Of a stretch of 64,000 nucleotides of DNA, positions 36,056-38,810 are shown in pieces. The notes below the pieces were generated by a model that saw only the letters and a list, made by a program, of their open reading frames with translations, was not told where the DNA came from and made no database searches. Within the stretch, counting starts at the first letter, position 1. Each line of letters starts with the position of its first letter. A program made the translations under genes and the position numbers. Source of the DNA: an uncultured Pseudomonas sp. (GTDB lineage Bacteria; Pseudomonadota; Gammaproteobacteria; Pseudomonadales; Pseudomonadaceae); the NCBI GenBank assembly GCA_963518285.1, contig CAUQIJ010000008.1, positions 125,269 to 189,268 on the forward strand. The letters run 5' to 3'.

Positions 36056-37027
36056 ATGAAACAGTATCTAGATCTGGTCCGCGACGTCATCGACAACGGC
36101 ACTCTGCAGAGCAACCGCACCGGCGTGCGCACCATCAGCCTGCCCGGCGCCATGCTGCGCTTCGACCTGCAGAAAGGCTTCCCCGCCGTGACCACCCGCC
36201 GCCTGGCATTCAAGTCGGCCATCGGCGAGATGGTCGGTTTTCTGCGTGGGGTGAAAAACGCCGGCGAGTTCCGCGAGCTGGGCTGCAAGGTCTGGGACCA
36301 GAACGCCAACGAAAACGCCCAGTGGCTGGCCAACCCGTTCCGCCAGGGGCATGACGACCTCGGCGAAATCTACGGCGTGCAATGGCGCCAGTGGCCAGGC
36401 TACAAGCGCGTGCCGCTGAGCAACCCGGCAGCCATCGCCATGGCCGAGCAACAGGGCTTTCGCCAGATCGCCCAGGACGAAGAACACGGCCAGGCCTTCG
36501 TCATCCTCTACAAGGCTATCGACCAGGTCCGCCAGTGCCTCGACACCATCGCCAACGACCCGGGCAGCCGACGCATCCTGTTCCACGGCTGGAACTGCGC
36601 CCAGCTCGATGAAATGGCCCTGCCGCCGTGTCACCTGCTGTACCAGTTCCACCCCAATGTAGAGACCAAGGAAATCTCCCTGACCCTCTACATTCGCTCC
36701 AATGACCTCGGCCTGGGCACGCCATTCAACCTCACCGAAGGCGCTGCGCTGCTGTCGCTGTTCGGTCGCCTGACCGGCTACACCCCGCGCTGGTTCACCT
36801 ACTTCATCGGCGACGCCCATGTGTACGAGAACCACCTGGACATGCTCAACGAGCAGTTCACCCGCGAGCCATTGCCGGCCCCAAAACTGGTGATCAGCGA
36901 CCGCGTGCCTGAGTTTGCCAAGACTGGGGTGTATGAGCCGGAGTGGCTTGAGAAGATCGAGCCGAGCGACTTCAGCCTGGAAGGCTACGAGCACCACCCG
37001 CCACTGACGGCGCCGATGGCGGTTTGA
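36056..37027 (+). CDS. thyA: Thymidylate synthase
   Basis: YGVQWR, SRR, MALPPCH, RSND..LG.PFN, PMAV end. Confidence 0.97.
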
Positions 37028-37064
37028 TTTGGATTGGTCGCGGGGCCGGGTGCCATGCGATGTC

Positions 37065-37123
37065 TTTGCTATACCCAGGGATTGCTCTCGGCTCTGCTGA
37101 GTCGAGAATCTGGGTGAGGCAAA
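37065..37123 (+). repeat. Long imperfect hairpin downstream of thyA
   Basis: ACCCAG..GATT..CTCGGCTC / GAGTCGAG..AATC..TGGGT; a G-U pair favours the + strand. Confidence 0.55.
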
Positions 37124-37176
37124 TTGTAAGAAGGGTGCTACGGGTGCGGGAGGGCCAGATGCGTCAGGACTTCCCA

Positions 37177-37206
37177 GAAACGAAAACCCCGACTCGAGGC
37201 CGGGGT
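37177..37206 (-). terminator. Rho-independent terminator of the candidate sRNA
   Basis: Minus strand ACCCCGGCCTCGAGTCGGGGTTTTCGTTTC. Confidence 0.7.
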
Positions 37207-37271
37207 AGGTGTTTCGTGGTCTTTGCAAAGAGTCGTAAGCTTTCGCTCATTGGAGCTCAGTGCCAACCTGT
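37177..37271 (-). ncRNA. Candidate ~95-nt small RNA divergent from the Abi/HEPN gene
   Basis: Minus-strand TTGACA-17-TAGCAT promoter, UGAGC-GAAA-GCUUA hairpin, terminator CCCCGGC/GUCGGGG plus UUUUCGUUU. Confidence 0.6.
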
Positions 37272-37277
37272 GCGTCA

Positions 37278-37306
37278 ATGCTACGAGCGGCTGACACCCA
37301 TGTCAA
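37278..37306 (-). promoter_or_regulatory. Sigma70 promoter on the minus strand
   Basis: -35 TTGACA (37306-37301), 17-nt spacer, -10 TAGCAT (37283-37278). Confidence 0.65.
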
Positions 37307-37347
37307 CCTGCACTAAGCAAAGCGCGTTGTTGAAAAGGAAACCGAGC

Positions 37348-38256
37348 ATGCCCCACAGCGTCCAGTACCGACCCGTGCTGATCGATCAACTTATCAGCAG
37401 CCACAGAATCGCCAGCTATAGCAAGGTCTTCTCCACTACCAGCGACACTGAGCTTGTCGGCGCCTACCTCTGGAACTCTCACGTTTGTGCGTCTCTCTAT
37501 CCGCTGCTCAGTGCGGTCGAGATTACTCTTCGCAATGCTATTGACTCTGCTCTGACTACCGATTTGGGGAAGTTCTGGTGGAAGACGAACACGTTACGAT
37601 ACAAAAGCTTCGCCTCGGCAGCGTCCCCGCCGCACGCAGTGCAGTGCCTGACCAATAACTTCACGTCGGCCTATAAGATCGCCAAGAGGGAAGGGAGCAA
37701 GCGACGAGGTGCGCGCGATGCACCTGCCCACCAGGAAGTCGTCTCTCAGACCGAGTTTTCCACATGGGAATTCATCCTCGATGGTGAATACATGGGCAAC
37801 AACCTGATCTGGCCAAAGAACCTGGGTCGGGTCTTCAGGGGCCCTTGGCCTAGAAGTGCCAATATGCTCCAGCATTGCAGGGAGCGCGTATCGTTGGTAA
37901 GGAATTTCCGTAATCGAGTTTTCCACCATGAGCCTGCCTGGAAACGATTCAATGTCACTGATGAGCAGCAGGCTGTTGCTCATTTGCACGACAAAATCAG
38001 CAAAATCATAGAGCTGATCACGTGGGTCTCGCCTGAGAAGATCGACCTGTTGGAAAAGAGCGGTGTCATCAGATCTGCCTATCGCGCCTGTTCACTCGCA
38101 GAGATTGATAGGTTCAAATACAAGTCAAAGACGAGCACGGTCGACAGCATGACCAAACTCATCGAGGTCGCGGAATCTGCCAGTACCAGCGACGAAGTGT
38201 TGCAAATCGAGGTTCATGGCAAGCCGAACGCCGTCTACATCCTTCATGCCGGTTGA
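37348..38256 (+). CDS. Abi-like (Abi_2/AbiD-AbiF superfamily) HEPN-type RNase
   Basis: YLWN, EITLRN, FSTW, RNRVFHHEP (RxxxxH); AAGGA RBS; atypical codon usage. Confidence 0.8.
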   Translation: MPHSVQYRPVLIDQLISSHRIASYSKVFSTTSDTELVGAYLWNSHVCASLYPLLSAVEITLRNAIDSALTTDLGKFWWKTNTLRYKSFASAASPPHAVQCLTNNFTSAYKIAKREGSKRRGARDAPAHQEVVSQTEFSTWEFILDGEYMGNNLIWPKNLGRVFRGPWPRSANMLQHCRERVSLVRNFRNRVFHHEPAWKRFNVTDEQQAVAHLHDKISKIIELITWVSPEKIDLLEKSGVIRSAYRACSLAEIDRFKYKSKTSTVDSMTKLIEVAESASTSDEVLQIEVHGKPNAVYILHAG

Positions 38257-38314
38257 TGGCTGCTTTGCACCTCGCCACTTAGGTGGCTAAATGACCCGGC
38301 CTGCATTGGCTTCA

Positions 38315-38758
38315 TCAATGTCCATGACTCCTCCCCACATGCGAGTGCTCGGTCTCTGGCACCGACACCGCACCATTCACCTCCAGCTGCTGCAGAATCG
38401 CGCATTCCGCCCCGGGTGCGGTGCAGCGTTGGCGCAGGTCGACCAGTTGCTCTTGCAGTGCCAGCAGGCCGTCGATGCGGGCCTGGACGTGGTCGATGTG
38501 CTCGTCGATCAGCGCGTTGACGCTGCCGCACTGGCCCTCCGGGCTGTCGCGCAGGCGCAGCAGGCTGCGGATCTCGTCCAGGGTCATGTCCAGCGTGCGG
38601 CAGTTGCGGATGAAGGTCAGGCGCTCGACGTGGGCCTGCGTGTACAGTCGGTAGTTGCCGTCACTCCGGTCGGGCTCGGGCAGCAGTTGCTCGCGCTCGT
38701 AGTAGCGGATGGTTTCGACGGCGCAGTCAGTGGCTTTGGCCAGTTCTCCGATTTTCAT
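38315..38758 (-). CDS. cadR: Cd(II)/Pb(II)-responsive MerR regulator
   Basis: MKIGELA, ETIRYYE, metal-binding Cys residues, His-rich tail. Confidence 0.95.
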
Positions 38759-38779
38759 CACGAATCCTCTGCAGATGGC

Positions 38780-38810
38780 TTGACCCTATAGTGGCTACAG
38801 GGTGTTCACT
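38780..38810 (+). promoter_or_regulatory. CadR-regulated cadA promoter with MerR dyad
   Basis: TTGACC-19 nt-TTCACT with dyad ACCCTATAG-TGG-CTACAGGGT. Confidence 0.9.

Follow-up and report, generated by a model that had tools for sequence, protein, structure and literature searches.

The window, by which we mean the whole stretch of 64,000 nucleotides of Pseudomonas DNA that was analysed, carries an accessory insert between two genes that we take, from their translations, to be thyA and cadR (Table 1). The insert holds a 302-residue gene with the motifs EITLRN and RNRVFHH and, upstream of it on the opposite strand, a predicted promoter, a structured region of about 95 nucleotides and an intrinsic terminator. 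The preliminary description had called the gene accessory, and indeed it is absent from the thyA–cadR site in all 18 same-genus genomes compared. In seven of nine loci from relatives the interval between the flanking genes is 110–193 bp, and in the other two 484 and 1001 bp. The GC content of the gene is 53.5%, versus 62.6% for the whole window.

Table 1. Features of the accessory insert, in window coordinates, with what each assignment is based on
Feature	Position	Strand	Basis or remark
Accessory insert	37028..38314		between thyA-like and cadR-like genes
PD-T4-5-family HEPN RNase gene, 302 aa, AbiF-like fold	37348..38256	+	PADLOC, motifs, fold match
Candidate antitoxin RNA gene, ~95 nt	37177..37272	-	fold, covariation, model match; ends predicted from promoter and terminator
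RNA 5' domain, long interrupted hairpin	37218..37268	-	closing stem, covarying middle stem, internal loop, variable apical hairpin
Intrinsic terminator of the RNA	37177..37206	-	stem 37206-37186 and U tract
Sigma-70-type promoter of the RNA, TTGACA-17-TAGCAT	37278..37306	-	motif scan and conservation
TTGAC-N6-GTCAG dyad over the -35 box	37291..37306		possible operator or overlapping weak plus-strand -35

Between thyA and cadR, Pseudomonas genomes have a variable insertion site (L073, L075, L053 and run X2, the last with a different cargo). Usually a short repeat-like palindrome lies there, in some cases 0.5–1.3 kb of other cargo, and L053 carries the same gene–RNA module there, with a truncated gene and an intact RNA.

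By sequence, the 302-residue protein is a member of the known PD-T4-5 defence family: the PADLOC model (PDLC04038) matches residues 1–292 over profile positions 1–299 of 309 (E = 7.4e-88). EITLRN occupies residues 58–63 and RNRVFHH residues 188–194, and E58, L61, R62, N63, R188, N189, R190 and H193 are invariant in all 99 aligned proteins, which were chosen among 120 matches listed, of 258 found. Both the R-phi-x-x-x-H motif and the upstream E-x-x-L-R-N helix that mark HEPN domains are thus present and conserved. Pfam Abi_2 (PF07751) scores 20.3 bits against a gathering cutoff of 25.6 (E = 7e-4), some relatives pass that cutoff, and sequence searches of NCBIfam and the PDB returned no match. 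Many homologs (P0004, P0011, P0016 and others) are labelled 'CAAX protease', apparently through a mix-up with another family named 'Abi'; we rejected this annotation, there being no match to such a family and a motif set that is entirely of the HEPN kind.

The AlphaFold model of the protein (pLDDT 91.6) was compared with 48,161 chains. The top match is 8VZ6, PbAbiF with its non-coding RNA (Z 12.0, rmsd 4.6, 225 aligned residues), followed by the next chain at Z 7.0, on a scale where helical bundles reach middling values by chance; Foldseek also ranks 8VZ6 first (probability 0.99, E 0.2, TM 0.48), and there is a weak relation to the HEPN domains of Cas13 (6iv8, Z 5.8). Sequence identity to PbAbiF is 10–11%, which makes the protein a distant AbiF relative, as the accessible part of Vassallo et al. 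2022 also describes PD-T4-5 (PMC9519451). We infer an AbiF-fold HEPN RNase whose activity, by analogy with HEPN and AbiF proteins, would be that of a dimer. The preliminary description had considered the locus the best candidate in the window for an undescribed system. For the protein this does not hold, given its membership in PD-T4-5; what is new lies in the RNA and in the architecture.

A promoter scan of 36500–38800 returned a single promoter-like site, on the minus strand at 37306–37278 (1 found; 0.5 in shuffles). Promoter and terminator scans by themselves are near chance; it is conservation that places the RNA unit far beyond it. The 96-nt minus strand folds at -34.7 kcal/mol (z -3.76), with 1 of 200 shuffles equally good, and the terminator region has no U tract on the plus strand. 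The earlier call of the minus strand, made from G-U pairs in two stems, is borne out by 129 G-U versus 8 A-C cells in 45 aligned sequences. The promoter and terminator of the preliminary description are both in place, and the RNA is predicted to be transcribed from this near-consensus, opposite-strand promoter of its own. Two structural details had to be revised. The closing stem, given as AGGU/ACCU, is in the window GGUU/GACC (37268–37265 with 37221–37218); an extra A-U pair on this stem occurs in 33 of the 45 aligned sequences and is absent in the window. The GAAA-tetraloop hairpin exists as part of the apical hairpin, which varies in loop sequence and length and is not a conserved feature.

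A model of the RNA scores 88 bits at the locus, its sole full match in the genome; a second match at 32 bits was set aside as an ordinary terminator. Rfam has no match at the locus, and the abiF motif (RF03085) is absent from 36500–38800 at E up to 10. Among sequencing runs recorded as RNA, none contains the locus, and two eukaryote-type poly(A) runs, which are no test of it, yielded no reads. In run X1, which is only guessed to be RNA, one 151-nt contig is identical to 37147–37272. It covers only the RNA gene, extends 30 nt beyond the terminator and has 25 foreign letters from exactly the predicted +1. One contig can show neither start nor strand, and we therefore do not count it as evidence of expression.

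How far does the RNA accompany the gene? A protein-first search gave 63 homologous loci. The divergent RNA lies 60–110 nt upstream in 49 of 49 homologs that match at least 235 residues at 43% identity or more, all from beta- and gammaproteobacteria. It is absent at four loci with gene fragments (L050, L051, L052, L054) and kept beside the truncated gene of L053. Nine more distant loci (L055–L063) carry another RNA, also conserved and provided with a promoter-like region and a terminator; 3 of its 36 predicted pairs show compensatory changes. The RNA model was built from most of the 49 loci, and three held-out loci (L049, L064, L070) score 40–71 bits. In a 45-row alignment 95.5% of cells are paired, versus 27–52% in controls with the structure slid along the alignment, and the terminator stem reaches 99.6%. 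Compensatory changes occur in 12 of 24 pairs (90 cells versus 30 in shuffles), although the shuffle counts overstate significance because the aligned sequences are related rather than independent. The prediction of the preliminary description that a conserved structure would be found beside homologs has thus come true, which confirms the minus-strand unit of ~95 nt as a genuine structured element that is conserved.

Conservation is higher in the RNA than in its surroundings. Among 10 Pseudomonas loci, identity is 93% in the RNA, 70% in the coding sequence and 51% in the flank; among 38 other loci, the corresponding values are 72%, 61% and 50%. Seven unpaired columns are identical in at least 43 of 45 sequences across classes of Proteobacteria, and these near-invariant bases lie in a G/AA bulge and in an internal loop where CAA faces C. 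A promoter of the form TTGAC-17/18-TAnnnT precedes the RNA in 42 of 43 homolog loci matched by regular expression and in 49 of 64 metagenome matches.

These 64 matches come from a metagenome search with the RNA pattern only, which yielded 41 distinct cores. In 59 of the 64 stretches the gene or a remnant lies divergently within 240 nt of the RNA, several of these genes being broken. No gene adjoins the RNA in the other five, of which two are identical and one has just 346 nt of flank. In a census of 141 same-genus genomes, with 30 candidates scored per genome, the RNA occurs in five, always adjoining the gene (three intact, two truncated), and all three intact genes of the close clade have it. 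In this clade the RNA is thus seen beside broken genes and no intact gene is seen without it, as expected of an antitoxin. Neither the RNA pattern nor a relative of the E. coli PD-T4-5 protein was found in viral contigs; five viral-contig matches of the class II RNA pattern had no homolog nearby and were treated as chance.

Two loci (L120, positions 1330–1600, and L126) have two tandem copies of the RNA gene beside one toxin gene, which is intact in L120; the first copy of the pair has its own promoter and terminator. In L133 and L142 (1501–1600), an orphan copy without a -35 box lies directly behind an Avs3-like gene fragment on the same strand (PADLOC Avs3a, E = 6.5e-31).

The family has been tested in E. 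coli. According to the accessible part of the publication, PD-T4-5 is a toxin–antitoxin-like abortive infection (Abi) gene active against T4, a single gene for which no antitoxin is named there, cloned as a 945-bp ORF with 184 bp upstream in a promoterless vector (PMC9519451). An E. coli plasmid locus (L071), whose protein is 30% identical to that of the window over 276 residues, has a 945-bp ORF; the published primers both match there, the forward one exactly 184 bp before the ORF and the reverse one behind it, so we take it to be the published allele or nearly so. Within these 184 bp, a divergent TTGACG-17-TATTGT promoter is followed by a structured region and then by a terminator, whose U tract forms the left end of the published clone, where the primer ends. 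The clone validated in 2022 evidently contained a predicted divergent promoter–RNA–terminator unit. This RNA is of another sequence class, common to eight loci with an invariant GUUCUAGU and a UUCUAGU internal motif, and the RNA model of the window class does not detect it. Single-sequence folds of the class give a similar interrupted hairpin; the fold of the alignment recovered only the terminator, which leaves the 5' structure less secure. With no promoter in the vector, the toxin promoter must lie inside the cloned 184 bp, which are taken up by the RNA gene.

Similar units accompany other branches of the family. Among 24 plasmid loci, hand-chosen from lists rather than sampled at random, an opposite-strand unit closed by a terminator lies upstream of the gene in 15, and in 12 of these it has a consensus-like promoter. 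In eight the unit is downstream and convergent (six ColE1-type plasmids and two Acinetobacter loci, the latter judged by eye), so that a position at the 5' end of the gene is not required; one locus, on an Agrobacterium pTi plasmid (L156), has no unit. In the six ColE1-type loci, RNAI fills the upstream space and the downstream unit has a TTGCTC-18-TAnnAT promoter. There the homolog lies right behind RNAI, and a conserved promoter–RNA–terminator unit of ~135 nt follows on the minus strand (L066:2219–2351, L155:2280–2424, L167:2100–2238, L173, L174, L175), that of L066 without an Rfam match. RNAI/RNAII was considered as the partner in this small-plasmid clade and set aside once the dedicated downstream unit was found.

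Among the six of eight much more distant Pseudomonas Abi-like loci that were analysed, a divergent promoter is present in four and a short terminator-ended unit, judged by eye, in five, with none at L186. Abi-like proteins of ~225 residues with RNRIAH (L192, L188, L189, L187) have an upstream minus-strand promoter, a short structured RNA and a terminator; the RNAs of L188 and L192 belong to one hairpin class with a GNRA cap. Outside the main class the RNA calls rest on pattern and eye rather than on strong covariation. Different RNA classes track different protein clades. Partner units at 25 other loci have no match in Rfam, which found only RNAI and C4 elsewhere in these loci. With 763 protein clusters matched by a profile search at E up to 1e-10, this may be a large class.

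We propose the following model. The locus is likely to be a type III toxin–antitoxin system of the abortive-infection kind whose RNA antitoxin has a free-standing gene of its own; this RNA would probably hold the nuclease off until infection. A linked, conserved, non-coding structured RNA, as found here, is one of the general features of the type. The preliminary description had suggested such a variant with a divergent, independently transcribed RNA antitoxin; the conserved structure and an RNA-bound AbiF toxin as top fold match support it, the RNA being a putative antitoxin. Transcribed from a near-consensus opposite-strand promoter of its own, the RNA would fold into the interrupted hairpin that covariation supports, and bind the HEPN nuclease dimer. 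The active site may be blocked by the conserved unpaired bases of the internal loop and bulge, in the manner of AbiFr, the RNA that inhibits PbAbiF (PMC12737573). Since no strong promoter can be recognised for the toxin gene, the RNA might be kept in excess over the toxin. Shutoff of host transcription by a phage, displacement of the RNA or loss of the element would then deplete the RNA, free the RNase, arrest the cell and abort the infection; ToxIN is the precedent for phage takeover depleting an antitoxin RNA. An Abi phenotype is published for the 30% identical E. coli protein (PMC9519451).

Could the opposite-strand unit instead act in cis? In type I-like antisense regulation or transcriptional interference, the opposite-strand transcript or occlusion of a promoter would suffice, without RNA–protein binding. 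Whether divergent or convergent, the RNA gene is oriented against the toxin gene in all architectures seen, a constancy that a pure type III model does not require. In L041 and L192 the -35 box of the RNA is at most 5 nt from the start codon, touching the predicted start in L192. This leaves no space for a separate toxin promoter, a conserved plus-strand version of which was sought across homolog promoter regions and not found. The toxin mRNA must then overlap the RNA promoter or gene, and antisense effects are possible; the position of the toxin promoter in the validated clone likewise speaks for cis control. Of 85 distinct promoter regions, 30 have a TTGAC-N6-GTCAA-type dyad with at most one mismatch over the RNA -35 box, and no conserved plus-strand -10 follows it in these 85. 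At several loci from betaproteobacteria, the box is flanked by another inverted repeat. Yet regulation in cis needs no conserved unpaired bases, it does not explain an RNA more conserved than the coding sequence and with a strand-specific G-U bias, and the unit has been relocated downstream in other clades. Pairing of the RNA with the mRNA did not exceed that of shuffles in 37279–37410 (10/60) or in the coding sequence (31/60), though the RNA may overlap a longer leader of the toxin mRNA. We consider cis action as the explanation unlikely; antitoxin and cis modes coexist in C. difficile AbiF (PMC12373285).

It is also conceivable that the RNA is a required cofactor or sensor, the assembled ribonucleoprotein (RNP) being switched on by a phage protein or RNA; loss of the RNA would then cost the cell its defence and not be toxic. 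The tight coupling of gene and RNA, conservation of the RNP type and the fold relation to AbiF and, weakly, to the Cas13 HEPN domains would all suit this. The RNA, however, has no variable guide-like segment or array, and its persistence beside broken genes, with no intact close-clade gene lacking it, is the asymmetry of an antitoxin; moreover, in the nearest relative of solved structure the RNA acts as an inhibitor (PMC12737573). This reading appears to us quite improbable. Very improbable is that the structure is an unrelated element (a repeat, a mobile-element end or an orphan sRNA) riding with the gene: 5 of 64 RNA matches do lack a gene, but there is one full copy per genome, each of the five occurrences in 141 genomes adjoins the gene, the two co-occur over 43–74% protein identity in many genomic settings, and different RNA classes follow different protein clades. 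We give next to no credence to a small peptide antitoxin read from the AUG in CCAAUG (28 codons in the window): an AUG is present in 84 of 90 distinct RNAs and 44 yield a 9-codon frame, but six have none, ORF lengths run from 2 to 80 codons, the spacing falls in all three frames (57/24/9), the AUG lies inside a covarying stem-loop, and no peptide is conserved within the 90 RNAs.

What is the relevance of a type III system of this kind? The control of PD-T4-5, validated as a toxin–antitoxin-like Abi gene without an antitoxin, has so far gone unexplained, and a conserved RNA gene lying unknowingly inside the tested clone allows a direct, cheap test in E. coli. If confirmed, the model would carry the range of HEPN type III systems beyond Bacillota and Bacteroidota to Proteobacteria and their plasmids, add an independent opposite-strand antitoxin gene as an architecture that we did not find described in the literature searched, and contribute several new RNA families absent from Rfam. 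More tentatively, at somewhat short of an even chance, we speculate that the PD-T4-5/Abi-like proteins of Proteobacteria form a large, so far unrecognised radiation of HEPN nucleases under RNA control, which runs parallel to the AbiF lineage ancestral to Cas13. Its RNAs would have free-standing genes on the opposite strand, of several unrelated sequence classes and placed upstream or downstream, and would sense the infection. On this reading, many Abi-like entries listed as 'single-gene', often named 'CAAX protease', would be two-component RNP systems. No RNA partner for PD-T4-5 was found in the literature searched, and eight supplementary files of PMC13064643 and PMC8040213, a part of what accompanies those papers, contain no Abi match; Zilberzwige-Tal et al. 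2025 (Cell) or subscription papers may already cover these clades.

How does the locus compare with known systems? With PD-T4-5 it shares a near-full-length match to the PADLOC model, and the E. coli locus L071 likewise has a divergent unit. PD-T4-5 as presented in the accessible part of Vassallo et al. 2022 is, however, a single gene without an antitoxin (PMC9519451), and the E. coli RNA is of a different class; the window copy, a putative defence gene, is chromosomal and belongs to another clade. ToxIN-type antitoxins are tandem repeats, processed by the toxin and encoded in a shared operon with it, whereas the RNA of the window forms one hairpin without repeats, has a promoter and terminator to itself and accompanies a protein with an AbiF-type fold. 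What ToxIN/AbiQ, CptIN, TenpIN and AbiV have in common with it is an RNase toxin with a non-coding RNA partner and a role in Abi, as far as the accessible part of PMC13064643 describes them. The likeness to AbiF/AbiD (PbAbiF–AbiFr, 8VZ6; C. difficile AbiF–RCd22; RF03085) goes further, to the fold family, the R-N-x-x-x-H HEPN motif, a weak Abi_2 match and an adjacent small structured RNA with an internal bulge. RCd22 in C. difficile is a same-strand leader, co-transcribed with the toxin, that attenuates it at a terminator and carries abiF motifs (PMC12373285). In the window the RNA is predicted to be a separate gene on the opposite strand, judging by its promoter, its U tract and the G-U bias; it has no RF03085 match, and the identity of its protein to PbAbiF is 10–11%. 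Lacking both the abiF motif and the same-strand leader, the system is not a canonical AbiF; it is PD-T4-5 by sequence and most likely works like AbiF.
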